Positions 5,694 to 30,989 of a stretch of 33,589 bases of DNA are shown one piece after another. Source of the stretch: a virus (lineage: Duplodnaviria > Caudoviricetes); IMG/VR virus record IMGVR_UViG_3300042695_000544, positions 1 through 33,589 of that record; one strand, 5' to 3'. A program made the translations under genes and the position numbers. The first letter of the stretch is position 1. Every line of letters starts with the position of its first letter. A model generated the notes under the pieces. That model saw nothing but the letters and a program-made list of their open reading frames with translations, was not told the DNA's origin and did no database searches.

Positions 5694-5939
5694 ATGCTAA
5701 CAGAACGCACCATTTTCTCGCTCTGCGAGGTTCTTCCTTCAACCGTCCTTCAGGTTCGCCTGTCGGACCAGATCGTCGATGGAGAAGCCGTGAAGGCTTC
5801 CACTTTCCGCCGCTATTGCTTGACTCCCGGCTCAGACCTTACGGGTCAGCCCGAGCAGGTTGTCGCGATTGCTGGAGCCGTATGGACTCCTGCCGCGATT
5901 GCCGCTTACAACGCCAACCTCAAACCCACCATCCAATGA
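5694..5939 (+). CDS. Small fibre-associated protein (paralog A)
   Basis: 81 aa, immediately after the fibre gene; YCLTPGSDLTGQPEQVVAIAGAVWTPAAIAAY. Confidence 0.8.
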   Translation: MLTERTIFSLCEVLPSTVLQVRLSDQIVDGEAVKASTFRRYCLTPGSDLTGQPEQVVAIAGAVWTPAAIAAYNANLKPTIQ

Positions 5940-6196
5940 TCGTACCAGTTGATATTGTCTCAGTGCAGGTAAACCAGAACAACTCGCTGTTCGTCACGAC
6001 CGGAATCGATTACGACAGCGACGGCGCGGTTGTGGGGTCTGAGATTACCGCTCAGTACACACTAAACCCCGGTGATTCGCTGGAAGGTCAGCCAACCGAG
6101 GTGGTGAATATCGCCAATGCGCTGTGGACTCCGGCGGTTGTGGAGGCCTACAAAGCGGCTAATCCGGTGGTTGAAGCCGTTCAGCCTACTGAGTAA
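5936..6196 (+). CDS. Small fibre-associated protein (paralog B)
   Basis: ATGA-coupled start at MIVPVD (5936); YTLNPGDSLEGQPTEVVNIANALWTPAVVEAY aligns with paralog A. Confidence 0.8.
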   Translation: MIVPVDIVSVQVNQNNSLFVTTGIDYDSDGAVVGSEITAQYTLNPGDSLEGQPTEVVNIANALWTPAVVEAYKAANPVVEAVQPTE

Positions 6197-6721: not shown

Positions 6722-6851
6722 CGGTGATCCGGTGATGCTAGCAGAGCCCGTCCGCGCCCGCGTCTACGCGTTCGATAAGGACGGTAAGCTCTCTGGGCCG
6801 AGTCGGGTTACACTTCCAGCTGGGTGGTACGTACTACCGAAAGCCAAATGA
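6633..6851 (+). CDS. Lipoprotein, o-spanin (Rz1)-like
   Basis: Signal peptide MRQSLSKTIWLLVLPICLG-C with lipobox, then a Pro-rich mature part; lies in the lysis cassette. Confidence 0.65.
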   Translation: MRQSLSKTIWLLVLPICLGCQQTKVILVPSGDPVMLAEPVRARVYAFDKDGKLSGPSRVTLPAGWYVLPKAK

Positions 6852-7093
6852 TTACCTACCGGGGCCAGAAATTCGCCGGGTACAACAAACCGAAGTCAAC
6901 CCCGGGAGCTTCTAAGAAGTCTGCCGTGCTGGCTAAGGAAGACGGCAAGGTCGCTCTCGTGCGCTACGGTGATCCCAAGATGTCAATCAAGAAGCACATC
7001 CCAAAGAACCGTAAAAGTTTTCATGCCCGGCATGGTTGTGACACACCGGGCACGAAGCTCTCTGCAAAGTATTGGTCGTGTAAGGCCTGGTAG
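6848..7093 (+). CDS. Small basic conserved-type phage protein
   Basis: ATGA-coupled start at MITYRG; VRYGDP...RKSFHARHGC...SAKYWSCKAW, a motif set I recognise from small basic phage proteins of unknown function. Confidence 0.8.
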   Translation: MITYRGQKFAGYNKPKSTPGASKKSAVLAKEDGKVALVRYGDPKMSIKKHIPKNRKSFHARHGCDTPGTKLSAKYWSCKAW

Positions 7094-7094
7094 C

Positions 7095-8342
7095 TCAGTA
7101 CGCCGACGGCAACTCGTCGATCGCGTCTTCAGCACTCTTAGGAGCCATGCGCGTCGCAGTCGAAGTCCCCTCACCCTGACCGGGTTCCGAGGATCGGACC
7201 TTTCCAACCTTCTTCTCCAACTCCGCCACCTTTTGCTGGAGACGGATTACTCGCAGGCGCTCACGGCCGTAGGCCCGAGCACGTAGTGCAACCTGGGCCT
7301 GAGCCTTAGTAATGAGGTCAACCTTGTCCTCGTAGCCCATGTCAGCATCGACGCCCTCGCCTTTCAGCGCGATTCGGATCAGCCGATCGCTTTCGTCCAG
7401 GAGCTTGTTGCCATCATCGTCACCATCTTCCCTACCGAACAGCTGCGGGTGGCTTTTTTCGTAATCCGAGAACTGCGATTCAAACAGCTCACGCGAACGA
7501 GACTGGCGCCCCTCTACCTGCTTCGATCGCTCAACCTCACGCTGCGCTCCCTTTTCCTTCCATTCAGCGATGGACTTGTCGCGAGACTGAGTGAGTTCGA
7601 GTAACCGGCGGCGGTGAGTCATTATCTCAGGCGCAGCTGCACCAAACATCTCCTGGGCGATAATCGCGGCCTTGGCGACCGGCACGTTCAAGATCGCCAT
7701 GATGTCATGGTGACTGGCGTCGCGCTCAGTGCCATCGGCATCAGTGACGCGGATTCCATCAATATCGCCTAGGGCGGTCTGCCACGCTTCGCGCAGAGGG
7801 GTCTCGTACTTCTGCTTGTACTCACCAGAACGCGTGTAGTTCAGATACCGCACCTCGGTGTCCAGCTCCTCGGCGTTCTTCCGGATGGAATCCATCTCGG
7901 CCTTCAACGACTTGGTAGCCTCTTCGACTTCCTTCCGAGTGCCTTCGGACCTAGCACGCTCAAGCTCAGAGACCTTGGCCGCAAAATCATCGCGCTCCTT
8001 CTTGGTCAGGTCGTACTGCTCACGGAACTGCTTGATAGACGTGGGCTCAGGCTTGGCGGGCTCAGCCTTAGCGGTCGGCGCTGGTTCATCCTTCTTGGGG
8101 GTGAACTTATCGAGGTTAAAGAAATCCTCGTTCTTGGGCTTAGCAAGGTCAGCGGGGGCAGCCGCCTGAACCTCTGGAGCGGATACCGCAGGCGCAGGTG
8201 CTACCTCTTGAGGAGTCTGCTGGGACGGTGATCCCATCGGGTTGTCTAGCCCGCTGCCTTCGATGGCGTCGATTCCTGCAAAGGCGTCAGCGTAATCCGC
8301 CCCGCGATCAGTTGGGGCATCAGGTGATAATAGGATTCTCAT
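7095..8342 (-). CDS. Probable capsid scaffolding protein
   Basis: Acidic, A/P-rich N-terminus, long coiled coil, no Cys, located two genes downstream of the portal. Confidence 0.7.
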   Translation of the reverse strand: MRILLSPDAPTDRGADYADAFAGIDAIEGSGLDNPMGSPSQQTPQEVAPAPAVSAPEVQAAAPADLAKPKNEDFFNLDKFTPKKDEPAPTAKAEPAKPEPTSIKQFREQYDLTKKERDDFAAKVSELERARSEGTRKEVEEATKSLKAEMDSIRKNAEELDTEVRYLNYTRSGEYKQKYETPLREAWQTALGDIDGIRVTDADGTERDASHHDIMAILNVPVAKAAIIAQEMFGAAAPEIMTHRRRLLELTQSRDKSIAEWKEKGAQREVERSKQVEGRQSRSRELFESQFSDYEKSHPQLFGREDGDDDGNKLLDESDRLIRIALKGEGVDADMGYEDKVDLITKAQAQVALRARAYGRERLRVIRLQQKVAELEKKVGKVRSSEPGQGEGTSTATRMAPKSAEDAIDELPSAY

Positions 8343-8596
8343 TCGAGGTTTTGAGTGGTGGTCGGTTTTTCTTTCCGCATCTCTGCAAGCCCGTTGAGTT
8401 CATCAATCAATGCCTTTGCGCCCTGTCTGCGACAGTTTGCATTCCATCCATGTTGAGGATTCTCTGAGGCTGGCAGGTTCCAGCAGAAATTATTGAACGC
8501 AACGAGTAGGGCAGCTTGTAAGTCCTGATTATCCAGGAGGCGCTTAAGCTCGTTGAGGCGCTGTTGGTTTTTTTGAAACTCTTGTTTTGGGGTCAT
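8339..8596 (-). CDS. Small protein between portal and scaffold
   Basis: 85 aa helical, ATGA-coupled at both ends, ...RRQGAKALIDEL. This position is conserved in many podoviruses. Confidence 0.75.
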   Translation of the reverse strand: MTPKQEFQKNQQRLNELKRLLDNQDLQAALLVAFNNFCWNLPASENPQHGWNANCRRQGAKALIDELNGLAEMRKEKPTTTQNLE

Positions 8597-10866
8597 TGGT
8601 TGAGAATATTAGCCTGAGTCTTGAGATCCATGGCAGCAATGTCTGCGCGAGTCAGAGCGCCTTTACGCTGAGCCTCAGCGATCGTGCTAGCATTCTTGCG
8701 CTGCTGATCTTGATCGAACGCGACCTGCTTCTGAGTCCGCTTCTGTTCGGAGTTTGCCGCAGCGATCTGCGACTTGGACTGCGCGGTGATGAGCATCGCC
8801 TGGATCTTCGCAGCGGTCTCGGGATCCATTCCGTTGCCAGCTGCGCCGGCTTCGGCTTGAGCTTGAGCCTGCTCTTGAAGGCGCTGCACGTAGCCCTTGA
8901 TGTAGTTTGAAGCCTGGCCGATGCCGTCGTTGTAGAGCTTGATGTTCTGCTCCTGGCCCGGGTCCTGAGAGATCAACTGGATCTGCTCCTGGATATGCTG
9001 TATCACGTTGGCCAATCCCAGCACGCGATCCATCGTGGTCATGCCGCCACCTTCCTTTTCAATGCGGCCAATGGCGCCACCAAGCATCTGAAGCAGCGTC
9101 TGGATGTACTCGGGGCGATTGAGTGCGCTTGCGATAACGACAGGTTGACCGTCGATAAGCGTGCCCCACGCTAGGGTAGCGCGTTCGACAGCCGGGGAGA
9201 CCGGCTTGTTGTCGATCGGAGCCAAGCGATTTGCCAGGAGGGGATCATCAGTGTTGGCCTCGACATACATGTGCACAACCTCGGCCTGAGAATCCGGAGC
9301 TAGCAGCGGTCGGATAGCCATCAGGCGGTCAGCCTGAGCAATCTCCAGCATCTTGTTGCCGGAACCCATGACGCGCTCGGGCATGATATCCCATGCGTCG
9401 AGGTTGTTCCAGACGGAGGGATCAACACCGTCAGCCTCGCACTTACGACGGAACTGTTTGCAGTCGGGGTGGTCGATCGTGCAGAACCGGCGAGCGATCT
9501 CGCGGTACTGGAAATTCTGCTGCGTGTAGGCGCGTGTAAGCATGGAGCCCATGAGCGCGTTGGCGTTGTTCACGCGAGCCATAACCTCGGTAGCGGTCAG
9601 CTCCTTCGATGATCCGTCATTCACGTCCTGCGTGTAGGCAGCACTCGACTCAGACATGATCTGTCGGTGCATCGCCATAGCGCCAGACAGCATCGGGTAA
9701 TCGACAACGTGACGCTCAGACTGCGGAACCCAGGAGAGGCCCTCGGGAATCACGCCCATGTTCACTAGGTCGATCTTCTCCATCCGTTCCATGTCACCAT
9801 CAGCGACATTACGGAAGAGCCAGAGCATCTGCTCGAAAACGGAGTCGGTGAACTTACAGCGCAGGCGATTCTGGAGGTGGCACACCGCATAAAGCAGGTA
9901 GCCAAGGGAACGCACCGAGTGCCAGCGGAACGGCGGAACCACAGCGCCGTCAGCGAACTGGATGTGCATCAGCTCGAAGATATCCCGGCCGTAGCAGCGG
10001 TCGCCGGCATTGAAGAGCCATTCGCCAGCGGTCTGCATATTACCGATGCCGCTGTTGTACTGGTCAACGATGATGCGGCGGCGCCAGGAAGGATCGTCGC
10101 TGGTCGTGTCTAGGAAGTAGAAATCGTAGCACCGCAGCACCGGAGTCGCATCGGAACCCCAGTAACCAGAGTTCTCCTTGAAGTCTTCCTCAATCTTTTC
10201 AGGGAAGTATTGGCCGGACCAATCGTTCACCTGGAGACTCGATGCCTCGCGCTGGATCATCGCGGCCAACAGCTCGTTCACCAGCTTTAGGTTCCAGCCG
10301 GGATCGACGTTCTCACCGCGAGTCATGCGGATTAGGTCCGCAGCTGTGAAGGAGGTGTAGATCGCGAAGTGCGACATATTCTCCATCGTGGTCAGCGTGT
10401 TCGTAGGAACCAAAATGTCTTCGGTTCCACGAGCCGACGGGCACCATTCACGATCACGTAGCCAAGTCACCGGCCCGATACCGTGCAGAACCGTCGCAGC
10501 AAACTGAGATTCCAAGACCGTGGAATACTTCGGAGATCGCTTCATCACGCGGTTCAACTGCTTCGTGATGATGTTACCCCACTCAGTGCGCTTATCCCGG
10601 GGGCCGGTATCAAGGCCCACAGAAAAGTAATTCTGAGGCTTCAGGAACGCGTTCGTAAACTGCTGGCGTGCCGCATGAATGATGCGCGTACCTTCCAGAA
10701 AGTTGACGTTTGTCTGGATCTTATTGTCGCGAGCCTCCTCTTCGCTGTATGGAGGATTACCGTTAAAGGTAGCGTTAATGCGAGCGCGATTGCGAGAACG
10801 AGGCTGTTCAGCCTCTAGCATCGCACTAACAACATTCCAGACTCTACTTGGTTCTTTGAAACTCAT
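8593..10866 (-). CDS. Portal protein (P22-like, long helical C-terminal barrel)
   Basis: About 757 aa from MSFKEP; TATEV motif (ELTATEVMARVNNANA), Q/A-rich coiled-coil tail; downstream of TerL and upstream of the scaffold. Confidence 0.85.
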   Translation of the reverse strand: MSFKEPSRVWNVVSAMLEAEQPRSRNRARINATFNGNPPYSEEEARDNKIQTNVNFLEGTRIIHAARQQFTNAFLKPQNYFSVGLDTGPRDKRTEWGNIITKQLNRVMKRSPKYSTVLESQFAATVLHGIGPVTWLRDREWCPSARGTEDILVPTNTLTTMENMSHFAIYTSFTAADLIRMTRGENVDPGWNLKLVNELLAAMIQREASSLQVNDWSGQYFPEKIEEDFKENSGYWGSDATPVLRCYDFYFLDTTSDDPSWRRRIIVDQYNSGIGNMQTAGEWLFNAGDRCYGRDIFELMHIQFADGAVVPPFRWHSVRSLGYLLYAVCHLQNRLRCKFTDSVFEQMLWLFRNVADGDMERMEKIDLVNMGVIPEGLSWVPQSERHVVDYPMLSGAMAMHRQIMSESSAAYTQDVNDGSSKELTATEVMARVNNANALMGSMLTRAYTQQNFQYREIARRFCTIDHPDCKQFRRKCEADGVDPSVWNNLDAWDIMPERVMGSGNKMLEIAQADRLMAIRPLLAPDSQAEVVHMYVEANTDDPLLANRLAPIDNKPVSPAVERATLAWGTLIDGQPVVIASALNRPEYIQTLLQMLGGAIGRIEKEGGGMTTMDRVLGLANVIQHIQEQIQLISQDPGQEQNIKLYNDGIGQASNYIKGYVQRLQEQAQAQAEAGAAGNGMDPETAAKIQAMLITAQSKSQIAAANSEQKRTQKQVAFDQDQQRKNASTIAEAQRKGALTRADIAAMDLKTQANILNQ

Positions 10867-10873
10867 ATTGATC

Positions 10874-11266
10874 TCAGATTGCTTTCCGTTCCTGCGAAAT
10901 CCAGCATTTATCAGGCATTTCACGATCGCCTAGGTAACTCAATGGCACCCAGACCTTGAGCTTCAGGTAGCAGCCGCAGACTTCGCAGGTGCCAGCATTA
11001 GACTCACCTTGAAGAATCATAGCCATGTCGTGGCGCAGCTGCTCCTGCTCAATGATAACCTCAGCGACAGTCTTCTCGATCGCGTCTGGCTTCGTTGGTT
11101 TGTTGTGTAGGCAGTGCAGACACGTATCAAGACGATGCTGCGCTACTGAGCGATCAACGGGAATACCGCCATCGCCCAGCCATTCCGCAAGAATCCTTAC
11201 CCCTTGCGCCGTATTTTTAACCCTTTCCACCGCACGAGCGACAGCCTGATACCCTTGGTTGAGCAT
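10874..11266 (-). CDS. Cys-motif (putative Zn-binding) hypothetical protein
   Basis: Start MLNQGY (11266); RLDTCLHC...CEVCGCYLKLKVW...PDKCW. Confidence 0.75.
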   Translation of the reverse strand: MLNQGYQAVARAVERVKNTAQGVRILAEWLGDGGIPVDRSVAQHRLDTCLHCLHNKPTKPDAIEKTVAEVIIEQEQLRHDMAMILQGESNAGTCEVCGCYLKLKVWVPLSYLGDREMPDKCWISQERKAI

Positions 11267-11495
11267 TAGTTTGAGTGGATTGAGTTGTTGTTTGCTGGGG
11301 AAGACGAGCTTTTGTGTAGGCTTCCAAATCACTCACCGCTTTTTCAAATGACGACGGAAGGTGGTTAGCAACCCGGTGCTGCTGGATCAATCGCGCCATC
11401 GAATGAAAATCGTAATTCATCGGGTTTGGCGCGGTCCACTGGGTTGCAGGTTCGTAGAACTGCCATCCACCATTTGGAAACGTGTTGTAACTCAT
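11217..11495 (-). CDS. Hypothetical protein ending in GCRSCGG
   Basis: 92 aa, starts 12 nt after the ssb stop, overlaps the next gene by 50 nt. Confidence 0.7.
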   Translation of the reverse strand: MSYNTFPNGGWQFYEPATQWTAPNPMNYDFHSMARLIQQHRVANHLPSSFEKAVSDLEAYTKARLPQQTTTQSTQTNAQPRVSGCRSCGGKG

Positions 11496-11507
11496 GCGGC
11501 TTGATTT

Positions 11508-11924
11508 TTAAAACGGCAGATCATCGGCGTCGAGATCAGGCTTCGGCGCGGCCGGGGCCTGAGCCCTCGGAGCCGGCGTGGCACCTTCATCACGTCCCTT
11601 AAGGAACTGGAAGGTTTCGATCATAATCCGCGTAGTAGACCGCTTGTCTCCGGTCTTCTTGTCGTCCCACTCTTCCCGGGTCAGGCGCCCTTCAATCATC
11701 AACGGATTACCTTTCCTGACGTATTGAGCGATCGTCTCGGCCTGCTTCCCAAACGCCTTGCACTCAGCAAAGTACACGTCTTCCTTTTCCTCACCAGCCT
11801 CGGTCTTCCAGCGGCGATTCACTGCCAAGCTCAGGTTGCAAACGGCAGTCCCTTTCGGAAGGTACTTGAGTTCTACGTCTCGGGTGAGGTTGCCGATCAG
11901 GATGACTTTGTTGAATGATGCCAT
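11508..11924 (-). CDS. ssb: Single-stranded DNA-binding protein
   Basis: FNKVILIGNLTRDVEL...FGKQAE...IEGRL OB fold; acidic tail DDLPF. Confidence 0.96.
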   Translation of the reverse strand: MASFNKVILIGNLTRDVELKYLPKGTAVCNLSLAVNRRWKTEAGEEKEDVYFAECKAFGKQAETIAQYVRKGNPLMIEGRLTREEWDDKKTGDKRSTTRIMIETFQFLKGRDEGATPAPRAQAPAAPKPDLDADDLPF

Positions 11925-11928
11925 AAGG

Positions 11929-13701
11929 TTAGGAATAGGTTAGCGAATGTTCAGTATCCATCGTGCGACGCTTATCTGACAGACGTGTCAGCCACTTTGG
12001 TGTCTGTCGCTTGACAATACCAACCCCCTGCCCGCCTGCAATCTCAAATCCCGTTCTGCGAGCCATTTCGAGTGCGACCACGAAAGAGTCCCATAAATCA
12101 GGGGATCGGCCCATGCGTTCCTTGGTTTTGTGCTTGGGCTCCACGTCGATCAAACCAGTGCGGGAGATTCCCCATTCGCGCATTGACCCTTCCTCGGCGA
12201 CTTCCCGGGGAAGTTTCCTCAGCTGCTTGGATTCGATCAGCAGGCGCGACGAATACCAAAGGGCCGTGACCATCTTGCCGTAGGCTTCCCGCTCAGTCTT
12301 CGGATCACCTTTCCGAACAGGGCGATCTGTCGGGCGACCGCCAAACTCGATCGGCACCACCTCGGGTGACCACAGGCGGGCGAACGCAGACATCAGCGTG
12401 CCGCGTCCAGTGGAATCGAATCCCACCTGATTAGGCGGAATGTTGCGCTGCTTGCAGTACAGGAGCACGTACTCGGCAATCTGCTCCTCCGCCTGCTGCG
12501 CTTTGACGGCCGTCACAGGGATTACGATCGGGGCCTCAGCAAATGCTAGCACGATGCGTCCAGTGCTGTCCGGGCCGTACTGAAGGTCGATCATAACGCA
12601 TCGGTCACCACCGATGCCTGAGTACGCCGCGTCGATCCCGATGATTCGCGTGATCTTGTCGGCGCCCTGCCACACGATTTCATCGAACGCCTGGTTCTGC
12701 TCACACAGCGACATAGTGACCACGCGCCGCGTACCGCCGTCTCGGGGCAGCAGCCCGAGGTTCATCATCGAGAACTGCAACGAATCTCGGCCGTAGTAAT
12801 CCAAGTCCGCCTGAATCTGCTCCGGAGTGATAATGCCTCGGTACGGATTGGTTCCTTTCGGAAACTTCGCGTTCGGCGTGTCGTACCCGCACAGCTGGAC
12901 AGCAACCCCTCCTGGCGCCCGCGTTCTCCAGGTGCGTGTCTGCTCAAGGTATTCAATGCCTTCCCAGCCGCCCATCGTAGAGTGCGGCTCGCAGACTACC
13001 CCAAGCGCGTCGTTGCGATCCTTGGGATTTCCCATCGCGATCAGCTTAAACTCCGGATTCTTGCGAAGGTTAGCGACTGAATCGAGGAATCCCCGGCTCA
13101 TCAGAGACGCCTCGTCTGCGATTAGCATCACTCGGTCGTTCTTGAGTCCGACGTAGTTCGAGAGACCAACGAACGTGCCGCCGACCTTGCACGCTACGCC
13201 GATGATTCCGTCGCGGAAGTCCTGCGCCTCGGCGTCTTGGTCAGAACTGGTCAGGATAAACCGGCTCTCGATAACGCGCCCAGGAAGCCATTCCCGGCGG
13301 GCCTTGGCCTTGTTGTGCAACTCCTTGATCGAGCCCCAGATTCGCAACTGGAGACCCTCACGCGTCGTTGACGACATGATGATCGAGGTGCCAGTCGGGT
13401 AGATGTAGAACGTGCAGAGCCCGAATGCTGCGGAGGTGTAGGTCTTGCCAGATGATCCTGGGCCCATGATTCCAACCTCTTGATTTTCCGCGAAAGTCTT
13501 GATTAGCAGGTCAGACCAGATGTGCCAATCGAAGTGAGGCCAAAGCGCCGTCATGGCTGCTTTAAAGTGATGATATTTCCCGCATCCGTACTTGACGCCG
13601 CCGGACATTATGTAACCGCCGCGACGAACCATTTCGGCTTCGATGAGAAAGCGGTCTTTTGTACGCCACGGTATAGACAGGTAATCTGGGCTTTCATTCA
13701 T
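11929..13701 (-). CDS. Terminase large subunit
   Basis: Start MNESPD (13701). Walker A GPGSSGKT, Walker B LIADEA, coupling motif MGNP, nuclease motifs GIDAA..GGD, FDSTG, RSPDLWDS. Confidence 0.92.
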   Translation of the reverse strand: MNESPDYLSIPWRTKDRFLIEAEMVRRGGYIMSGGVKYGCGKYHHFKAAMTALWPHFDWHIWSDLLIKTFAENQEVGIMGPGSSGKTYTSAAFGLCTFYIYPTGTSIIMSSTTREGLQLRIWGSIKELHNKAKARREWLPGRVIESRFILTSSDQDAEAQDFRDGIIGVACKVGGTFVGLSNYVGLKNDRVMLIADEASLMSRGFLDSVANLRKNPEFKLIAMGNPKDRNDALGVVCEPHSTMGGWEGIEYLEQTRTWRTRAPGGVAVQLCGYDTPNAKFPKGTNPYRGIITPEQIQADLDYYGRDSLQFSMMNLGLLPRDGGTRRVVTMSLCEQNQAFDEIVWQGADKITRIIGIDAAYSGIGGDRCVMIDLQYGPDSTGRIVLAFAEAPIVIPVTAVKAQQAEEQIAEYVLLYCKQRNIPPNQVGFDSTGRGTLMSAFARLWSPEVVPIEFGGRPTDRPVRKGDPKTEREAYGKMVTALWYSSRLLIESKQLRKLPREVAEEGSMREWGISRTGLIDVEPKHKTKERMGRSPDLWDSFVVALEMARRTGFEIAGGQGVGIVKRQTPKWLTRLSDKRRTMDTEHSLTYS

Positions 13702-13710
13702 CTTGCGGGA

Positions 13711-13739
13711 ATGCTGCTGCGGCCTTTCAATAGGTTCAA
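13711..13739. promoter_or_regulatory. Divergent promoter region between TerL and the tail operon (43-bp gap)
   Basis: Minus strand: TTGAAC(13739)-17-CAGCAT(13716)-9 nt-ATG 13701. Plus strand: TAGGTT (13731-13736) 8 nt before ATG 13745, with no good -35. Confidence 0.5.
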
Positions 13740-13744
13740 GCGTC

Positions 13745-15784
13745 ATGGTCGCAGAAAAAAATCGCATAGTAGATGGCCTCCTCACCGCTGAAGGTGGGGT
13801 GGATAGCGGTTTTTCGCCCTCACTCATTCAACCCAACCAGCTAGCATGGGCGGTGAACACGACAGTGCGCGGAGGATTCCCGAAAGCGCGGCCGGGGATT
13901 TGGACCAAGCTGCTGACGTTTAACGATCCCGCCGTTCTCTACAACGGAGGTTACTACAACGCTGCGGTGCAATCGGCGTTTAAAGAGGGGTTTTTTCAAG
14001 GGTGCGGATCTTACACCAACGACAACGGAGACCCTTACATTTACGCTTCAATCGGAGGCAAAGTCTTCCAGATCGACATAGGAAATAATTTCCTAGTCAC
14101 AGATCAAACTCCGCAAACCAGCACATTTTCCGTAAGCACACGTGGCCGCGTGTCAAATGTTGCGACTTACGTCTGCGGAGCGCCGCATGGATTATTTCCA
14201 GGAATGGTGGTGCGACTTCCGGAGCCTGTTGCAGCAAGTTTTTCCGCAGGATTTTTCGGAGACTTCATTGTCCAGACGATTCCCAGCCCAACAACTTTCA
14301 CGACCTACAGCCCAGGAGTTGATGCTGGACCTCTTTTGGGACCGAATTTCACCGGATATTTGCTAGCGGCAAATAATCCGAATGCGGATCACGTTTACTT
14401 TCAGCAGGCAGAGAACTGGTTAATCATTCAAGACGAGCAGAATGCGCCATATCTCTACGACGGAACTTCGTTTAGACGAGCTGCAAGCAATGAGGTTCCC
14501 GTTGGAGGCCCGATGGCTTACGGAAAAGGCCGGCTCTGGGTTGCCAATGGATCGGAATACTACGGCGGAGACCTAGTCTACGGCGATCCTGCTTTTGGTC
14601 GAGACAGCGTGATTCGATTTACGGAAAACACGTTCATCAATGAAGGCGGCGCCTTTGCGGTCTCAAACGGTCCGATTACAGGGCTGGCATTCGCGGCCAA
14701 CCTGGACACGTCCCTTGGCGACGGCGACCTGCTGGTGTTCACCCCGACCGCCACTTACGCGTTCAACGCGCCTGTGGACCGGGATGTTTGGAAGGATCTC
14801 AGTTATCCTATCCAGCGATTTGCACTCCTGAACTTCGGATCGTTCAACCACGAATCCATCGTGCCGGTAAACGGTGATCTTTTCTTCCGTGCTCAGGACG
14901 GTATTCGCTCGTTGATCTACGCCAGGCGCGACTTTACTGAGCTTGGAAATACTCCGATCAGCCGACAAGTGACCCGTGCGTTGGCTTACGACACGGATTT
15001 TTACCTGACGGCTGCTAGCTCCGTGAACTTTGACAATCGGATGCTGATGACCATTCAGCCTCAGAAGGTCAACAACCGAGGTATCGTACACCGAGGGGTC
15101 GTAGTGCTGGACTTTGATCTGGTCTCGGGCATAGGCAGAAAACTCCCGCCGGCATGGGAGGGAGTCTGGACTGGAGTCGATGTGTTCCAGATGCTGACGA
15201 TCCGAATCCAGAAGCAAGAACGCTGCTTTATGTTTGGACTGAATCAAGGGGACATCGGTCTTTTTGAAGTCACGAAGAACGGCCAGTTTGATTTCGATGG
15301 GTTCGATGATGTACCGATCGACTGGACCATTGAGACCCGCTCACTGACGTTTGGTGAACCTACAAACAAGAAGCGCCTTGTTAGCGCCGAGCAGTGGTAC
15401 GACCAGGTGATGGGCAATATCGAAGCTAAGGTCTACTTCAAGGCTAACGAGGGCGAGTGCTGGCAACCATGGGCTGAGATTAAAGACTGCGCCAAGTACC
15501 GCAACTGCGAGCCAGGCGAGATTTCCTGCCCTCCTGCGGTGATTAACTGCCAAGAGGTTAAATACTACCAGCCTCCAGCCAGATCGCGAATTGCCCTCCC
15601 ACAGCCTCCGGACAAGTGTGACGTGCAGACCGGCGGATTTACCCGCGATGGCTATGAGTTCCAGTTGCGCTACGTGAACACTGGCCGCTTCCGACTCAAG
15701 CGCGTGGCGATGGTTGCCCAGCGACTCCAAGAGGATATTTACGGCGACCTCAGCCGCGTCGCCTGCCCGTTACTCTCCGAATAG
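13745..15784 (+). CDS. Tail nozzle / packaged-DNA stabilisation protein (P22 gp10 / T7 gp12-like)
   Basis: Start MVAEKN. Beta-propeller-like composition (GRLWVA, DLFFRAQDGIRSL, PISRQV) and size; carries one inserted HGL..G repeat and a Cys-rich C-terminus. Confidence 0.75.
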   Translation: MVAEKNRIVDGLLTAEGGVDSGFSPSLIQPNQLAWAVNTTVRGGFPKARPGIWTKLLTFNDPAVLYNGGYYNAAVQSAFKEGFFQGCGSYTNDNGDPYIYASIGGKVFQIDIGNNFLVTDQTPQTSTFSVSTRGRVSNVATYVCGAPHGLFPGMVVRLPEPVAASFSAGFFGDFIVQTIPSPTTFTTYSPGVDAGPLLGPNFTGYLLAANNPNADHVYFQQAENWLIIQDEQNAPYLYDGTSFRRAASNEVPVGGPMAYGKGRLWVANGSEYYGGDLVYGDPAFGRDSVIRFTENTFINEGGAFAVSNGPITGLAFAANLDTSLGDGDLLVFTPTATYAFNAPVDRDVWKDLSYPIQRFALLNFGSFNHESIVPVNGDLFFRAQDGIRSLIYARRDFTELGNTPISRQVTRALAYDTDFYLTAASSVNFDNRMLMTIQPQKVNNRGIVHRGVVVLDFDLVSGIGRKLPPAWEGVWTGVDVFQMLTIRIQKQERCFMFGLNQGDIGLFEVTKNGQFDFDGFDDVPIDWTIETRSLTFGEPTNKKRLVSAEQWYDQVMGNIEAKVYFKANEGECWQPWAEIKDCAKYRNCEPGEISCPPAVINCQEVKYYQPPARSRIALPQPPDKCDVQTGGFTRDGYEFQLRYVNTGRFRLKRVAMVAQRLQEDIYGDLSRVACPLLSE

Positions 15785-23447: not shown

Positions 23448-26400
23448 ATGCCCATCGAAGTCGATTTTGGAACGGAGCTTGGAACCGTAGTATTCCCTGA
23501 AGATTACACCCAAGAACAAGCATTCGACTTCGTTAAGCAGAATCGAAAGCAGATCCAGCAAAACCTAATCCAGCGGCGGCAGCAAGAAATGGCCGGCGAG
23601 ACTGAGCAGCTGGAGGCGGCTAAGTACCGTGCGGGCGAGTATGGAGCCGTCGAGACTGCGCTTAACACACTCTCCGAGTTGCCGCGTATGGCGCTTGAGG
23701 GAACCGGCGTAACACTCAAGGGAGCAGCTAGGGCCGCTAAATTTTTTCCTCCTCCAACAGTCAATCCTTACACCGGAAGGAAGATTGAGCAGACTGCCGA
23801 AGTCCCACTGGAGCAAGAGCCTCTTTACCGCGCCGGTCAATCCATTCAAGAGTTTGGAAAAGAAACCTACCCGGGTCTCCCTGGCGTGCGAGAGTCCATA
23901 CCCGCTCAAATTATGGGCGGCATTGGAAGTACGGTTGCTACACTTCCAGCTGCGCTGATTGCTGGTCCAGCCGCTCCTCTTGGGGCTGCTGTATCTTACG
24001 GCCTCCAATCAGGTGAATCAGCAGCTGAAGACGCTGATGCCACGATCAACCGTCGTATTTCCGAGGCTCTGGCAAACCAGCAGTACGATGTCGCTGCGGA
24101 TCTTCAAGATCGCCGCGAGCAGACGAAAAACTTGGCATTTATCACAGCCGCTCCGATTGGCGCCGCTACCGAGGGTTTGTTGGGTGCTGCACCCAAGGTG
24201 GCAAGGCGTTTCGTCACCGGCCAGATTGGAGGCATCGGAACACGACTGGCCGAAAGCTTGGTGCCTAAGTCTGCAAAGTTCCAAAGTAAATTCCTTGGAG
24301 CCACAGGTGCTGAACGTGTCCGGGGCGCTGTCGAGGCGCTAGCCACTGAGGGCGTCCAAGAATCAGCTGAGCAGCTTGGAGGAAACATTGCCGCAGCTGC
24401 GGTCTACGATCCCGAACGCGGATGGCTTGATGGCGTTGCACAAGCGGGCTTCGTTGGTTCCCTATCTGGAGGCATCGTTGGCGGTCTCGTTGGTTCAAGC
24501 CGCAATGCTAAATTAGCTGGTGCTGCAAACGAAGCACTTGGAGGTGATCCGACAAACCCGCTGCCGCGTGCTAGCTCAACGGTTGCAGGTCTTGAAGACG
24601 GTCCTCAACCCACCGGCCCGATCGACATTGAGCCCGAGATTACGCCGGAGGATGTCCTGCGAATGTCTCAGGAAGCTGGGATTCCCATGCCGGCCGAAGA
24701 GGTGGCCCCTGTGCCCGCCCCGGTGGTTACCCCGGTGGTTGCGCCTGCACCAGAACCGCAGGCCGTCGTAACTCCCGCCCCGGCTCCCGCCCCTGCGCCC
24801 GCCGCCCCCGCCGCAACTGTCGATTCCGAAACCGGCCTAGCTCCCGACGAGCAGGATGAACTCGACCAGTTACTCACGGCCGAAGATGCCGGCCTGCTGA
24901 GCGAAGAGGGTGCTATCACTCTTGCAGGTTACCGCGCCCGATTGGGTGGGGTTGAGCCTGCTGCAATACAAACTCAACCTACCATATCCAGTGCCGTTCA
25001 AGAACAAGGCCCAAATGAAGGCGTGCTACGCGCAGAAGAGCAGCAACCCCCAATCGAAGTGGGACTGCGACAAGTGGATCAAGGAGGGCGGCCTGCCGAA
25101 AGCAGCGGGGCCGAAGTCCAAGTCACCCCGCAAGAAGTACGGCAAGTAAAGGCACGGGTAGCGCCAGCTCCGGTGGTCGAGGTCACCACATCCACGAAGC
25201 TCCCCAAGAATCTTGCCGGTGCCAAGCCCCGTTACAGCATCTCTCAGGATACGTACCTGCCGAGATTTGACAGCGACTTTGATCTCGCTGCGTACATCGT
25301 GACGCAGACAAAAAAATCTGATAGCGACGCGGATTATTTGAAGTGGGCAGTCGAGCGGTCTGGAATGACTCCAGAGGAAGTCCGTAAACACGGCCTTCAG
25401 GTTCGTGCTGAACTCAAGAAGCTAGCAGCTAAGACGAAGGCTGGAACTGCACAGAAACCTGCTGCGTTGGTTGTGCCTTCGGTGACGATTACGATGCCGG
25501 AGGTGGAGGCTACGGCGACTCCAGTGTCGGCGCCGGTTGCGGCCCCGGTAACCCCTGCCCCTACTCCAGTAGCGCCTACTCCGACTCCCGCCCCCGAGTA
25601 CACTCCAGCACGAATAAACAGCCTACTCCGAAAGCTCAAGGCCAAGGCCACAGCTGTCGGCAAAGGGTTGTACGAGATCAAAAATCTAGCCCCAGGACAG
25701 AGGTTGGTTCTCCGCACCCGCTTTGGAGGGCTTCAGGAAACCGACCAATTTCTGCTGCAAGAGAAATCGCAGGTTACAGGATATCCTTCAGACGAAGGGT
25801 TTATACTGCGCGACAAGCAGGAGGCCGTGGCTGGCGAAACGCCGAGGCCTGCGCCTAAGCCCGCTCCTATTGGTCCTAAGCCCGATGATGAACTCACCGA
25901 GCAGCAATACTACGACGCACGGGTCAAAGAAATTGCCCGGGACAACAAAGCTACCCAAGCCGAGGTACGCGAACAGTTTTCACGTGAAGACTCGAATCTC
26001 GAACATTGGCAGGCGATTCGGAATGCTGCTGAGTCTGGAAAGCAACTAAAGGTCGAAACGCTAAATCGACTGCCGGAAGCGCGGATTGAATTTCTTCGTA
26101 AGCAGTACCCTCAGTCTGTGCCGCAGGGATACATGGCGCCAGCAGTCAGTAAATCGGTCGCGGAAAAGCAGGCTGAAATGCGGGCGGCAAAACGTGGCGT
26201 TCGTCTTGCGCCTGCACCTGCAATCTCGGAGGAAGTTGAACTCAACGAGCTTCGTATCTCCAAGCAGCAGCGCGGCCGTTTGGGTCGCCTCACTGAAGAG
26301 CGGCTTCAGGAATTAGAGAAGAAGCTAGCACCTACACCTGCCGAACCTGTAGTCGCCGAACCCACCGAAGCCGAACTTCAAGCAGCTGAGGAAGCCCGCC

Positions 26401-29400
26401 TAGCTCAAGCTGAGCAAGAGATCGACGCTGGCCCCATTGGCCAAGCCAAGCAGAAGTTGGAGGATGAAGGCTCCGACATGAAAAAGAGCCAGGTTAAAGC
26501 CATGGCGCGTAAACTGGAGGCTAGCGGCGTCATTGATGACTCTGAGTTGGATGATGAAGGCCGTGACACTGGAGTGGATGAGCTTGTCGGTCAGCTGCTA
26601 GAACGCGTTGAGGAGGCCCGGGATACGGCGATTCAAGAGCGGGAACAGGAGTTGGCTGATGAGGCGAAGGCTGAAAAGGCAGCTCCCAAAACAGCCGCCC
26701 AATCCGCCATCGACGCCATCGACAAGGTCAGCAAAGGGCTGTCAGAAAATTCATACTCCGATCCGTTGTTTTTGACCCCGCTGGCAAAGCTAGCACTGCA
26801 AATTGCCAAGGGACTAATTCAGGTTGGTGTTGCGGTTGATAAAGCAATTCGCCAAGCCATCGCGCAGGCTAGACAGCAGTTTCCGAATGATCCTACTGAC
26901 GACATCCAGTTGGCCGATCGACTGATTCGAGATGCGGAGTATACCGCAGCTGTTGCAGCTGGTGACATGGAGACAGCGCAGCGGATGGTTGATGAGGCTG
27001 CGGTAAAGGCGGGGTACAAAACCAAAGGATTTCACCGCACACCGAAAGCGTTCACCAAGTTTATTCCTGGAGGACCTAAAGCTGAGGCTCAATTCTGGAC
27101 CACCAAAGCAGGAGAATTTAGAACCCTGTTTGGTCAGTCAGGAAGAGCCATTTGGTTTGGATCGTCTCCAGAGAATCTTCCTGCATACCATAACGAGCCA
27201 AGTGGAAAAGGCGTTGTGCTTGAGGTGTATCTGAAGAACCCATCACCACTGCAAATTGATGATGACACCAGAGCTTGGGGTCGAGACATCTACGCAGATG
27301 GGTCAAAGCAATTTCCACTTCTGCTGTCCGATGAACACATTCAGAGCATCAGAAAGGACGGCTACACTGGCATAGAATATTGGAATAACGGCAAGACTGC
27401 TGATAAGTCGGCGCCAGATGAGATGGTGGTTTTTGATCCCACCCAGATTAAATCCGCCGATCCCGTCACTCGCGACGATGAGGGTAACGTCGTTCCGTTA
27501 AGCCAGCGTTTCCAAGCTAGCACGGCTGACATTCGAGGAGCATCCGGTTTAAACCGTGGAATCGGAAAGCGGCTGTCCGATTGGGCTAGGAATGATACCG
27601 ACGAAGCTACTCGCCGGGTGCGATTTACGAATCCATCGACTGGAGAACAAGCGACCTTTGGAGATGTTATCTCCGATCTGCAATCAATCTCGGATGAGGC
27701 TGCTCCAGAATACGTTCGATGGCTGCAAAGCATTCCGAACAAATCTACTGCGACTGCTGACATTGTCTCCGATATTACCTTTATTTCCCGATTGGATGCT
27801 GAGGCTGAGCGCAATCAACGCCCCGACTCCGTCGAAGCCATCCTCCAAAAGGTAATCGCCGCTACCGATCCCAAGGGCAAGGTATTCGAGGCCATAACCG
27901 GGTTGTCGAACTTCGTGATTTATCAAGCCTCGAAGATCGCGCTCCGGATCTACCAGGCTACCAAGTCCTGGGTGGCCGCCCGTAATGCTGGCATGGACTA
28001 CATCAAGTCCCATGTCCAGCTGAGCAACGAAGCGGAGACTGCCGCTAACTTCGAGGAGTACATCAAGGCTTTCCCGAACCAGGAGATTCCCGCTGGGGCT
28101 CCTGGCCAGCCTCAGCCTCCGTCTCCAACCGAGCGCGTTGAATCACGAGGCATCTTCCGTGGTGATGTAGCCCGAGACACCGATGAAAACTGGCAGTCCG
28201 AAGCCCGCAAGTGGGTAGACTTCTACAAGGGGAACCTGGAGCGGGCGTTTCAGGGTTTTATGGGTCGCGACATTGATAAGTCGTTGCGGGAATACATTGG
28301 CGGAGAGTTGCTTCAACAGTCTGAGCTTGAGGTTGCCCGTGCCAAGAATCCGATTGACCTACTGCGGGCGCTGAATCTTCAAACACGCATCGCGAACGCT
28401 TTGGTTCAAGCGGGTTCTGACTTCGGTAAGCAAGGCCGCGCTCGCCAGCTGACGTTCGCTCGTTATGCGTGGATGGTTCCGCAGCTGGTGTATCGCCGAC
28501 TGGTAAACGAACGGCAGAAGCAAAAGATCCCATTCCCCGAGATCGTTGCCCAGCAGGTGCGTAAATGGCTTGTCGAGTCCGGCCAGCAGGCGATCGACCA
28601 AGTCAAAGAAGCTATGAAGCAGGCGGACAACGTGTTTGCCCGCGAGTTTAAGAAGATCAAGCAGGTCCCCGGTCAACCTAAAGGTCCCCCCATCGAGATC
28701 AAGTGGCAGGATATTCTAACTAAGTCCCTGCAAACCCAGGGCTCTGTGCGTCAAAAGATGCTTCAGGTTATCCTGGCCGATCCTCGGCTGAAGAACCTCA
28801 GTCCTGCTGGCATCGCTGAGATCACGAATCTCCTGACCAACGCTTGGGAAAAGAAGCGCGATCAGATTTTTAGATCCGAGTTTGCTAAGAAAGTTCCGCT
28901 GCCGACGGTCAAGCAAGATGCTCGCGAGAAGCTCTTTCGCTCTCTGCCTCGCATCCTGAAGTACGCCAACATCGCCAGGGCTACAGCTGGAGATCAGATC
29001 ACGACCGATGGCCCCGACACATTCCTTCTGTGGGATCAGGCTTTCCGAGATGCAGTGGCGCCAGAGTTTGGTGTGGCCGAGATCAACGGCCTTACCGCTC
29101 GCAAGCTCACCGAGCTAGCACAGCGGGCACAAGCCGCTCAGGGCGTTAACCGAAACCAGATTATCCAGGAGATGTTTCGCCTTATGGCCCGCGACGGCGG
29201 CGTGCGGTTCCCGGATGTCCTAAGAGATTACTGGTACGCGGCTGTGCTGTCCGGTACGCGAACTCAGCTGGACAACGCGCTCAACATCCTCAACGGCGCA
29301 CTGAACACGGTTATGCTTGCGGGCATGGCCGGTAAAGAAGCCGGGCTGGTTACCAAGTCTGCACTCAAAGGGCTCAACGAAGGTCTCCGAGACTTTTGGC

Positions 29401-30989
29401 CAATGCTCTGGCGCGGCGAGCTTTACCGCTCAGTGAACTTCAATCCAGACCAACCCGGCAACGCACTCGAAGGTCTCGGAGAATCTCGCAACCTGTTTGC
29501 CAAGGGAATCAGTCAAGCCAAGTACGTGAGCCGGCTGATGCTGGCACTAGATCACGTTACCGCCATGATGTCTGACGGAGCCGCGAAGGCTTACGCGCTC
29601 AACAAGGAGGTCGGATCCGAAGAAGCACGCAACCTGATGCTTCCAGAGGCGGACATAGTGAAGGCCGCCCGCGATCGCGCCATCGCTGAAGGCACCCGCC
29701 CTGACCTAGTCAACAAGCGCACCCGTGAGATTCTCCAGGAGAGCTTCCCGGTCGATGTCTTGATGACCTCTAAGGATATCCGCGAGGCCGTGACGTTTAC
29801 CGAGGTTCCGCAGGGTGTGATGGGTTCGCTTTACGAAGGACTGAACGCCGCTTCACGTAAGTTCCCGGCACTGAAGTTCCTGACTGGAACCAACTTTGTT
29901 CGCTTTGCCGCCAACTATACCAACGAGCTTCTTAACTACGCGGCTCCGATTGCGGTCTATCGTTGGGTTCAATCCGCACCTGGCAAGTCTGACCAGCCCG
30001 GCGGGCTTCAGTTTACACCGGCTCGACGTGACCTGCTGCTAGCAAAGGCTTCACTAGGTACGGCGTTGGGCGCAACGGCAGCCGCACTGTTTCTCGGGGA
30101 TGATGACAAGGAAGAGGATCGTGACATCGACATCACTGGATCGTTCAAGTCCCTCGATCCAAACAAGCGAAAGCAGCTGCTATCAGAAGGCCGACAACCC
30201 TATTCGATCCGCGTTGGCGATACCTACGTTTCCTACCGTCAGCTAGGATTCGGAGGTTTGCTTGGCGCCATCGGTGAACTTCGTGATCGCCAGCTGTTTG
30301 AACCAGAAAAATGGAATGAGGAGGGCATTATCGCCAAGGTTCAGGATGCAGCCACGGCCGGCCTGTTCATCGTGAAGGACTCATCTGCGATCTCTGGTCT
30401 CACGGAGTTCTTAGGCTTCGCTAACGCCTACAAGTACGACACCAACGAGGTTATCGAGAAATCAATGCCGCGTTACCTAGCACGGCTTGGTGGGTCGTTC
30501 GTTCCCAACATCCTCAAGGAAGTCGATGCTTGGTCTGACCCGTCGATATTCAAGGCTGAACCCGGTGGTCTCGGTCACGAATACTTCCTTCAGCAGGTGC
30601 CGTATGCCCGTCGCGAGATTGGGCCAGGTCCGATCCTGAACGTCCTTGGTGAGCCAGTGCGCGTCGAGCGTTACCCGTACAGCCGCTGGATTACTCAGCG
30701 TTCAGAAGACCCCGCCTGGAATACCCTCGGCCAGCTCGCAAGCAAAGGCGTCTTTATGCCGGTGCCGGCAATCACGGTTAAGGTCAACGAAAACGGCACG
30801 CGTCGAGAACTCACACGCGAAGAGAAATACGCCTACCAGCAGGCCGTTGGTCAGGGCTACCGCAAGTTTATCGAGCAGAATCGGGAGCGGCTGCTAGCTC
30901 TTCCGCCTGCCCAGGCATCCGACTTCATCGACAAAAATGCAGATCGCATTCGTCGAAATGCCCGAACAAATCTGAAAAATTCGTTCTGA
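23448..30989 (+). CDS. Large ejection / polyvalent protein (2513 aa) with an internal ART-like domain
   Basis: N-terminal Gly/Ala TM-like region (EALATEGVQE..EQ), P/A linkers, ART-like segment at about 26937-27512, C-terminal GRQPYSIRVGDTYVSY typical of large internal virion proteins. Confidence 0.85.
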   Translation: MPIEVDFGTELGTVVFPEDYTQEQAFDFVKQNRKQIQQNLIQRRQQEMAGETEQLEAAKYRAGEYGAVETALNTLSELPRMALEGTGVTLKGAARAAKFFPPPTVNPYTGRKIEQTAEVPLEQEPLYRAGQSIQEFGKETYPGLPGVRESIPAQIMGGIGSTVATLPAALIAGPAAPLGAAVSYGLQSGESAAEDADATINRRISEALANQQYDVAADLQDRREQTKNLAFITAAPIGAATEGLLGAAPKVARRFVTGQIGGIGTRLAESLVPKSAKFQSKFLGATGAERVRGAVEALATEGVQESAEQLGGNIAAAAVYDPERGWLDGVAQAGFVGSLSGGIVGGLVGSSRNAKLAGAANEALGGDPTNPLPRASSTVAGLEDGPQPTGPIDIEPEITPEDVLRMSQEAGIPMPAEEVAPVPAPVVTPVVAPAPEPQAVVTPAPAPAPAPAAPAATVDSETGLAPDEQDELDQLLTAEDAGLLSEEGAITLAGYRARLGGVEPAAIQTQPTISSAVQEQGPNEGVLRAEEQQPPIEVGLRQVDQGGRPAESSGAEVQVTPQEVRQVKARVAPAPVVEVTTSTKLPKNLAGAKPRYSISQDTYLPRFDSDFDLAAYIVTQTKKSDSDADYLKWAVERSGMTPEEVRKHGLQVRAELKKLAAKTKAGTAQKPAALVVPSVTITMPEVEATATPVSAPVAAPVTPAPTPVAPTPTPAPEYTPARINSLLRKLKAKATAVGKGLYEIKNLAPGQRLVLRTRFGGLQETDQFLLQEKSQVTGYPSDEGFILRDKQEAVAGETPRPAPKPAPIGPKPDDELTEQQYYDARVKEIARDNKATQAEVREQFSREDSNLEHWQAIRNAAESGKQLKVETLNRLPEARIEFLRKQYPQSVPQGYMAPAVSKSVAEKQAEMRAAKRGVRLAPAPAISEEVELNELRISKQQRGRLGRLTEERLQELEKKLAPTPAEPVVAEPTEAELQAAEEARLAQAEQEIDAGPIGQAKQKLEDEGSDMKKSQVKAMARKLEASGVIDDSELDDEGRDTGVDELVGQLLERVEEARDTAIQEREQELADEAKAEKAAPKTAAQSAIDAIDKVSKGLSENSYSDPLFLTPLAKLALQIAKGLIQVGVAVDKAIRQAIAQARQQFPNDPTDDIQLADRLIRDAEYTAAVAAGDMETAQRMVDEAAVKAGYKTKGFHRTPKAFTKFIPGGPKAEAQFWTTKAGEFRTLFGQSGRAIWFGSSPENLPAYHNEPSGKGVVLEVYLKNPSPLQIDDDTRAWGRDIYADGSKQFPLLLSDEHIQSIRKDGYTGIEYWNNGKTADKSAPDEMVVFDPTQIKSADPVTRDDEGNVVPLSQRFQASTADIRGASGLNRGIGKRLSDWARNDTDEATRRVRFTNPSTGEQATFGDVISDLQSISDEAAPEYVRWLQSIPNKSTATADIVSDITFISRLDAEAERNQRPDSVEAILQKVIAATDPKGKVFEAITGLSNFVIYQASKIALRIYQATKSWVAARNAGMDYIKSHVQLSNEAETAANFEEYIKAFPNQEIPAGAPGQPQPPSPTERVESRGIFRGDVARDTDENWQSEARKWVDFYKGNLERAFQGFMGRDIDKSLREYIGGELLQQSELEVARAKNPIDLLRALNLQTRIANALVQAGSDFGKQGRARQLTFARYAWMVPQLVYRRLVNERQKQKIPFPEIVAQQVRKWLVESGQQAIDQVKEAMKQADNVFAREFKKIKQVPGQPKGPPIEIKWQDILTKSLQTQGSVRQKMLQVILADPRLKNLSPAGIAEITNLLTNAWEKKRDQIFRSEFAKKVPLPTVKQDAREKLFRSLPRILKYANIARATAGDQITTDGPDTFLLWDQAFRDAVAPEFGVAEINGLTARKLTELAQRAQAAQGVNRNQIIQEMFRLMARDGGVRFPDVLRDYWYAAVLSGTRTQLDNALNILNGALNTVMLAGMAGKEAGLVTKSALKGLNEGLRDFWPMLWRGELYRSVNFNPDQPGNALEGLGESRNLFAKGISQAKYVSRLMLALDHVTAMMSDGAAKAYALNKEVGSEEARNLMLPEADIVKAARDRAIAEGTRPDLVNKRTREILQESFPVDVLMTSKDIREAVTFTEVPQGVMGSLYEGLNAASRKFPALKFLTGTNFVRFAANYTNELLNYAAPIAVYRWVQSAPGKSDQPGGLQFTPARRDLLLAKASLGTALGATAAALFLGDDDKEEDRDIDITGSFKSLDPNKRKQLLSEGRQPYSIRVGDTYVSYRQLGFGGLLGAIGELRDRQLFEPEKWNEEGIIAKVQDAATAGLFIVKDSSAISGLTEFLGFANAYKYDTNEVIEKSMPRYLARLGGSFVPNILKEVDAWSDPSIFKAEPGGLGHEYFLQQVPYARREIGPGPILNVLGEPVRVERYPYSRWITQRSEDPAWNTLGQLASKGVFMPVPAITVKVNENGTRRELTREEKYAYQQAVGQGYRKFIEQNRERLLALPPAQASDFIDKNADRIRRNARTNLKNSF
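24991..25149 (+). CDS. Overprinted small basic protein (52 aa) in the +1 frame of the large ejection gene
   Basis: GTG start; (M)PFKNKAQMKACYAQKSSNPQSKWDCDKWIKEGGLPKAAGPKSKSPRKKYGK resembles the 'MPFKSKAQ' type of small phage proteins; A/C-rich upstream tract like other starts in this genome. Confidence 0.65.
   Translation: MPFKNKAQMKACYAQKSSNPQSKWDCDKWIKEGGLPKAAGPKSKSPRKKYGK

Follow-up and report, generated by a model that had tools for sequence, protein, structure and literature searches.

A 52-codon reading frame nested in a giant phage gene is very probably a real gene of a widespread and frequently embedded family

A freshwater phage record raised the question of whether a 52-codon open reading frame (ORF) lying wholly inside a giant gene is a gene in its own right, which of the two frames is the older, and what the small product does. 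The window, i.e., the whole stretch of DNA that was analyzed (33,589 nt), is a 33.6 kb record that is about 61% complete and contains terminase, tail, RecT-like, and exonuclease genes. The sequencing runs matching the window were lake metagenomes; of 24 runs considered, 23 are possible sources of the DNA and one is an RNA run, covered as assembled contigs. The features considered here are as follows.

24991..25149, + strand: nested 52-codon gene with a GTG start and a TAA stop, encoding a basic microprotein of the MPFKxKxQ family, two-cysteine subfamily
24967..24990, + strand: G-free C/A tract ahead of the GTG, characterized by base composition, retention in relatives, and folding
24954..25179, + strand: variable block containing the tract and the small gene, delimited by comparison with relatives without the gene
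23448..30989, + strand: giant host gene, 2513 aa, polyvalent-type, with an ART-PolyVal domain at aa 1223-1338, assigned by family match and position

The only family match of the giant protein was ART-PolyVal (E 2.6e-8), and no match was found in a PDB sequence search with the protein. From its position after the tail genes, the giant gene likely encodes a virion or ejection protein. Its middle part (L163-L186, host residues 340-1500) was highly mosaic among close relatives, in which methylase-like, helicase-like, and ART modules swap; such swapping is expected of polyvalent proteins. Elsewhere in the window, a 531-aa likely major capsid protein (2135-3730) had no PHROG, Pfam, or NCBIfam match, and a second small, very basic protein of 81 aa without an NCBIfam match is encoded in the structural region (6848-7093). 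The terminase, a likely portal (757 aa), and a likely scaffold (415 aa) occupy 7095-13827 on the minus strand, inverted relative to the other structural genes, and this block includes an SSB-like gene (11508-11924).

The initial annotation had described a hidden Lys-rich gene in the +1 frame of the giant ORF, and its counts were reproduced. The ORF encodes 52 aa with 13 Lys, 47 of the 52 codons have G or C at the third base, and the overlapping host codons end in A in 24 of 54 cases, compared with 18.5% in the remainder of the giant gene. As regards openness, 15 of the 80 +1 stop-to-stop segments in the host gene were at least 52 codons long, and the +1 frame stayed open in 40% of 20,000 synonymous recodings of the host frame. 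Thus, in the window alone, the open frame is at chance level, and the case for the small gene depends on its relatives. The G-free C/A tract was also confirmed: of the 90 out-of-frame starts in the giant gene, none but the nested GTG is free of G at -20..-2. Its claimed resemblance to the start of the window gene at 5936 was partly borne out: that start likewise has no G at -20..-2, but it overlaps the stop of the 5694 gene (ATGA) and is therefore an unclean model for independent initiation. The genes at 5694-5939 and 5936-6196 are tandem paralogues (81 and 86 aa, 50% identity over 46 residues) behind a tail-fibre-like gene and possibly encode fibre chaperones.

A search with the peptide gave 305 candidate viral stretches; 244 were confirmed, and the analysis used the best 80 of these. 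The ORF was nested in the +1 frame of a longer ORF in 77 of these 80 and was free-standing in the other three. A single nested copy, in L009, carries TAG at codon 24, the conserved Trp24, and is otherwise intact to the usual stop (5001-5159); this may represent a recent loss, a read error, or readthrough. The host genes were either giants or a gene of roughly 397 aa between the portal and capsid genes, which was taken as the head scaffold gene on the basis of its position. Among cultured or isolate genomes, the nested ORF was carried by Flavobacterium Elemovirus phages (68 records matched, two opened; in elemoA_7-9A, MT497017, the nested ATG is at position 54224) and by prophages in two Paraburkholderia genomes. 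Both opened Elemovirus records annotate only the giant "structural protein", in line with the suggestion that gene callers miss the nested gene.

Since relatives found through the peptide are biased toward its conservation, a second sampling was performed through the host genes. Scaffold loci were found with the C-terminal 261 residues of the protein, without regard to the ORF, and the best 80 of 586 confirmed loci were analyzed. A +1-frame ATG-MP[FI] ORF of 36-52 codons, starting with ATG in every case, was carried by 64 of these 80, corresponding to 59 distinct peptides that were very divergent beyond residue 8. The 16 scaffolds without the ORF include the unscorable L122 as well as L160, which has a degenerate candidate. 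For the lineage of the window, 24 loci were found with the first 301 residues of its giant protein; nine carried the whole ORF (two being near-copies of the window), nine lacked it, and six ended too early. In relatives chosen independently of the ORF, it is thus open and conserved inside the host frame.

The distribution was further examined with 120 loci obtained by a DNA motif scan, in which the small gene was nested in the +1 frame at 72, alone at 41, at an edge at six, and ambiguous at one; two of the 72 are doubtful, with short GC-rich hosts, and three of the 41 are scaffold-nested copies with short flanks. The IMG/VR stretches holding the motif numbered about 1,800 (narrow) or about 7,600 (broad). 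When the host genes were clustered with the overlap masked, a scaffold cluster, four giant clusters, and two giant singletons were obtained, together with three doubtful short ORFs, with the limit that truncated giants may conceal relationships. Nesting was therefore seen in at least seven host-gene groups without detectable similarity outside the overlap. The nesting hosts that were identified comprised only scaffold genes, giant structural genes, and one likely small terminase. The arrangement had been tied to ejection proteins, whereas it is commonest in head scaffold genes. The anticipated stand-alone relatives do exist, and the family is large. At one locus (L279), the upstream gene ends inside the small gene, and each of three complete genomes held one copy. 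Free-standing members in S-CBS2 (L396, 4001-4111), C75C1 (L397, 4001-4105), and P-RSP2 (L399, 4001-4123) are unannotated in GenBank.

Selection in the overlap was evaluated with 28 independent scaffold pairs and four window-lineage pairs, drawn from ORF-bearing loci only, the distant pairs including multiple hits. In the scaffold pairs, the differences at host codon positions 1/2/3 were 128/59/53 in the overlap (687 codons), compared with 680/441/1597 in the domain (6979 codons; p 3e-27). The flanking linkers gave 156/110/225 and 201/102/301, and against them the overlap differed with p 3e-11 and 1e-12. In the four window-lineage pairs, the counts were 19/10/2 in the overlap and 106/65/333 outside it (p 8e-10). 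Changes that were silent for the small gene and altered the host occurred at 0.29 per opportunity (0.27 in giants), and those silent for the host that altered the small gene occurred at 0.06 (0.02 in giants). Constraint in the overlap acts on the small gene and leaves the host sequence nearly free. The proposed check on synonymous sites therefore came out in favor of a real nested gene under purifying selection, since the variation follows the +1 frame in both sets of pairs. Judged from these sequence comparisons, the 52-codon ORF is very likely a translated gene missed by annotation.

The direction of the overlap was then considered. The -1 frame of 43 free-standing copies spells the same acidic motif as the host linker; it is stop-free over 36 codons in 11 of the 43, and stops interrupt this "host" frame in 32. 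The host-frame motif occurs only together with the small gene, whereas the small-gene frame is also found free-standing and across unrelated hosts. In these terms, residues 515-568 or so of the giant protein are what the nested gene spells in its -1 frame. Distribution and selection indicate that the small gene is likely the frame that came first, with the acidic A[IV]QEQ "linker" as its shadow, and the term "overprinted" used by the initial annotation for the small gene consequently describes the linker instead. An overprinted gene in the usual sense is a younger and narrower nested frame, and this description was rejected for the small gene because of its free-standing copies and unrelated hosts. 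A tree of the small gene (97 rows, only 43 columns) implies 15 changes of context; the supported clade of the window (100/96) mixes five contexts, namely, scaffold genes, three giant classes, and two free-standing copies.

Relatives without the gene indicated how the block behaves. In five of them, the conserved anchors are 114-126 nt apart instead of 258 nt, an in-frame difference of 132-144 nt, and a shorter Pro/Ala/Thr-rich stretch replaces the block. In a contig from an RNA run, the joint is from 24953 to 25180 with 82 nt between, and the RNA-run contigs hold mostly the block-less allele, which bears on the allele present and not on transcription. Because the block is absent in-frame from lineage relatives, the host-frame motif is dispensable for the giant protein, which agrees with the earlier view that this region is tolerant. 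The small gene and its tract are present or absent as an in-frame unit, that is, as a movable block. The small gene is dispensable as well, being absent from 16 of the 80 scaffolds and nine of the 18 scorable lineage giants, and no replacement copy was found elsewhere in 10 records lacking it (24-77% complete). Moreover, L016 has a giant gene related to that of the window (43% identity over 1026 aa), followed after 22 nt by a free-standing copy of the same subfamily, the only one in the record. The downstream RecT-like gene of L016 gave no alignment with that of the window, and thus the synteny of L016 depends on the giant gene alone.

Translation of the nested gene would require a start inside the giant mRNA. 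Among the 90 out-of-frame starts of the giant gene, the window GTG had the least structure. Start accessibility ranked 1-2 in all 15 lineage loci, was in the top 10% in 23 of 25 giant-gene loci, and was in the top 25% in 58 of 64 scaffolds. The G-free tract is conserved in 12 nested lineage loci, and a tract of the same kind precedes the free-standing L016 copy. The start tract was less structured than 199 of 200 shuffles, and an Rfam search of the start region gave no match. Shine-Dalgarno-like GGAG/GGGG motifs precede the nested ATG at six loci (the two Paraburkholderia prophages, L021, L280, L296, and L336); L021 and the two Paraburkholderia loci have lower accessibility ranks and Shine-Dalgarno-like motifs instead. 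An upstream weight matrix, trained on mechanical ORF starts, ranked the window start second of 90 and was weak elsewhere (median quantiles of 0.13 and 0.22). Signals for initiation are thus present as accessibility, the G-free tract, and the six Shine-Dalgarno loci, with the weight matrix contributing weakly. Positions 24967..24990 likely form an initiation region that lacks structure, works independently of a Shine-Dalgarno sequence, and moves together with the gene.

The product was characterized from its family. In the 97-row alignment, M1, P2, and Q8 are invariant, and the window ORF matches the family profile with an E of 1.9e-12, the profile including the ORF itself. The window peptide is predicted to form helices at 6-18 and 26-33, followed by a disordered Lys-rich tail (pLDDT 69); for a free-standing member, AlphaFold gave a pLDDT of 88 with the 97-row alignment. 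The median net charge of the family is +11. No hydrophobic segment was found in the 97 members (maximum 17-residue hydropathy of 0.55; -0.73 in the window), nor was a lipobox-like motif (0/97). The window peptide had no match in Pfam, PHROGs (including phrog_1375), or NCBIfam, while other rows of the family, nested and fused members, match phrog_1375 through weak links. The nearest named cluster by language-model features was DUF3008 (PF11450; 0.87-0.88, under 0.9), which opens with a similar MPxKS motif; none of the 32 members scanned matched Pfam, and DUF3008 is a lead only.

Searches of PDB by sequence and fold revealed no likeness to any characterized protein. The narrow profile gave no PDB sequence hit, hits to designed beta-propeller repeats were rejected as summed weak hits of about 2 bits per repeat, and the fold search gave nothing with an E under 9; the best Z among 48,161 chains was 2.1, which has little weight for 43 residues. 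The viral fold library matched only uncharacterized proteins. The best fold matches to the window model were from Harvfovirus (E 0.03, 37% identity) and Terrestrivirus (E 0.06, 28%), and, on these models, the family may reach giant viruses of protists. The tblastn hits in E. coli and Salmonella jumbo phages (E 4-9) were taken as chance.

Genome context was determined for 26 stand-alone loci. Genes for terminase, portal, capsid, or tail lie within 2.5 kb of 14 of them; the other 12 have no head, packaging, or tail gene nearby, and a recombination gene is near one of the 26. In cultured actinophages, gp3 of Mycobacterium phage Indlulamithi comes after the portal gene and gp4 of Gordonia phage MScarn sits between the terminase subunits, while gp48 of Streptomyces phage FlowerPower directly precedes a holin. 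These MPFKSKAQ proteins of PHROG 1375 share the domain (pairwise E 1e-11 to 1e-16) and the head-module location; the named members are free-standing, unlike the two-cysteine member of the window, which has no phrog_1375 match. Longer proteins were also examined. Of 214 longer hits, the best 120 were used, and 84 of these reach at least 150 residues; the domain is N-terminal in 83 of the 84, on bodies forming 42 unrelated clusters that include NUDIX, cupin, lysozyme, DUF5661, and DUF6321. By eye, a recurring KxA, or in others xGG, follows soon after the domain in many of the fusion proteins (P0008-P0127), L026 (2724-7810), and neighbours; the window peptide has EGG at 32-34, and protease cleavage or targeting marks are a possible explanation of these motifs.

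By analogy, the fusion pattern suggests an N-terminal head-loading tag like that of T4. For T4, whose internal proteins are otherwise diverse, the capsid-targeting sequence is described as the sole conserved part and can carry foreign cargo into the head (PMC3012670). The likeness is a short conserved N-terminal leader on diverse proteins, as found here, and this serves as the working analogy for function. Unlike the present family, the T4 genes are not nested, and the likeness is one of fusion pattern. Against the analogy, a distant homologue in 201phi2-1, gp383 (pairwise HMM E 2e-9), lies outside a head module; on the strength of length and profile match, it was equated with the fold hit B3FJP3. 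In GenBank, gp383 lacks the mark "identified as virion protein by mass spectrometry", which its neighbours gp382 and gp439-442 carry; Lys-rich peptides would be easily missed by trypsin, which in the Elemovirus protein, for instance, yields a single peptide of 6 or more residues.

Several explanations were weighed against these data. It is tentatively proposed, with somewhat less than even probability, that the gene is translated from an internal start on the giant mRNA and that its product is loaded into the head through an MPFKxKxQ-helix leader; the part of this proposal that makes the small product a head-loaded leader or filler, by analogy, is held with the same reserve. About equally likely is a real late gene with a product that remains cellular and binds, at packaging or late in infection, nucleic acid or a protein of phage or host, for instance to assist the terminase or assembly or to counter host defences. 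A cytoplasmic accessory of this kind is a serious possibility, although short of probable, as it draws on the same conservation, selection, and accessibility, and the patchy presence typical of accessory genes, the missing mark on gp383, the many stand-alone copies adjoining terminase, and the strongly basic charge all fit it. However, it does not readily explain the strict N-terminal placement on the 42 unrelated bodies, and it leaves unexplained why the identified nesting hosts are scaffold and giant structural genes plus one likely small terminase. Lysis genes offer the same embedded +1 architecture, and a lysis accessory comparable to Rz1 (within Rz) or to gene E of phiX174 (within D) would suit the holin behind FlowerPower gp48 and one fusion with lysozyme; with neither a hydrophobic segment nor a lipobox-like motif in the 97 members, and with host genes that are not lysis genes, it is highly unlikely, and a two-component spanin was rejected on the same two features.

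The remaining explanations concern the ORF itself. A programmed +1 frameshift would truncate the host protein and add a basic tail at its C-terminus, and the +1 frame of the window is indeed open for 30 codons upstream of the GTG. Nevertheless, codon 1 is ATG or GTG in all 77 nested loci and in all 64 scaffold ORFs (the start being part of how the latter were defined), 53 of the 64 scaffolds have a +1 stop no more than eight codons upstream, and the domain is N-terminal in nearly all natural fusions, all of which makes a frameshift extremely unlikely. The chance-level openness in the window would also suit a shadow frame of a conserved host motif or an RNA element; this is largely refuted by variation that tracks the +1 frame and not the host frame, and the interrupted "host" frame of most free-standing copies, the loss of the host motif from close relatives, the lack of an Rfam match, and structure below that of shuffles leave it scarcely any probability. 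Finally, a selfish or hitch-hiking cassette like ShiLan, kept for its own spread, would account for a disjunct in-frame block with a GTG start. The 52 residues hold no nuclease or recombinase, the target gene is not fixed, and the relatives are mostly ordinary free-standing genes of head modules with one copy in each of the three complete genomes; such a cassette is very unlikely.

Fully embedded genes of tailed phages are treated as rare and mostly lysis-linked, and gene E of phiX174 is nested in the scaffold gene D. Lambda Rz1 lies within Rz in the +1 frame, where the host protein has a linker that tolerates mutation (PMC5295617), and ShiLan has an out-of-frame HNH gene in an actinophage methylase (PMC11855218). 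Embedded +1 genes are thus already known, and these two are the closest precedents, neither being the same system. Rz/Rz1 shares with the present case a fully embedded +1 gene in a tolerant host linker; it differs in being a fixed pair of lysis partners with Rz1 a lipoprotein (PMC5295617), whereas here no membrane feature was found and the host gene varies. ShiLan shares an in-frame insertion, a stop-free host frame, its own GTG and TAA, no Shine-Dalgarno sequence, and a patchy distribution (PMC11855218). It is, however, a homing endonuclease targeting methylases (PMC11855218), compared with a basic peptide of 36-58 aa that is far commoner and lies in unrelated structural hosts. A ShiLan-type homing insertion was rejected for the 52-aa product, which has no Pfam, PHROG, or NCBIfam match and hence no HNH assignment. 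No publication was found on the family or on its recurrent embedding across unrelated virion genes in a search that covered literature outside subscription journals, and the available passages of the Elemovirus paper mention neither nesting nor mass spectrometry (PMC7077304).

With the head-loading proposal as the working explanation, the following course may be envisaged. Ribosomes would start internally on the mRNA of the giant gene at the nested GTG. Read in the -1 frame, any member would give a stretch of low complexity and acidic character ([DN]A[IV]Q[EKV]Q...), often without stops, so that recombination could insert the gene and its tract into a tolerant virion-gene linker and leave the host frame unbroken. 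Such capture would have occurred several times, in scaffold genes and several kinds of giant genes, and would also have been reversed or lost. As the weakest step, the leader would act like the T4 capsid-targeting sequence, and the stand-alone peptide, consisting of the leader and a Lys-rich tail, would serve in the head as a non-essential accessory whose tail binds the prohead core or packaged DNA. A broader form of this proposal is doubtful, though conceivable by analogy: MPFKxKxQ would be a widespread head-targeting leader, used alone and on dozens of unrelated cargoes, and its gene would move by means of its harmless -1-frame linker, lie hidden in thousands of aquatic phage genomes, and supply new linker sequence to scaffold and giant virion proteins.

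The family is embedded in the majority (72/120) of the motif-based sample. Being embedded this often, and in seven or more host-gene groups, the family systematically escapes annotation. The loci also form a natural series for the origin of overlaps, in which the small gene stands alone, overlaps the end of its neighbour (L279), lies fully inside its host, stands alone again behind the same gene (L016), or is missing. Moreover, the cultured carriers (Elemovirus, Paraburkholderia prophages, and actinophages) make expression and function directly testable. If the leader does load cargo, it would constitute a second and much more widespread capsid-targeting signal beside that of T4.
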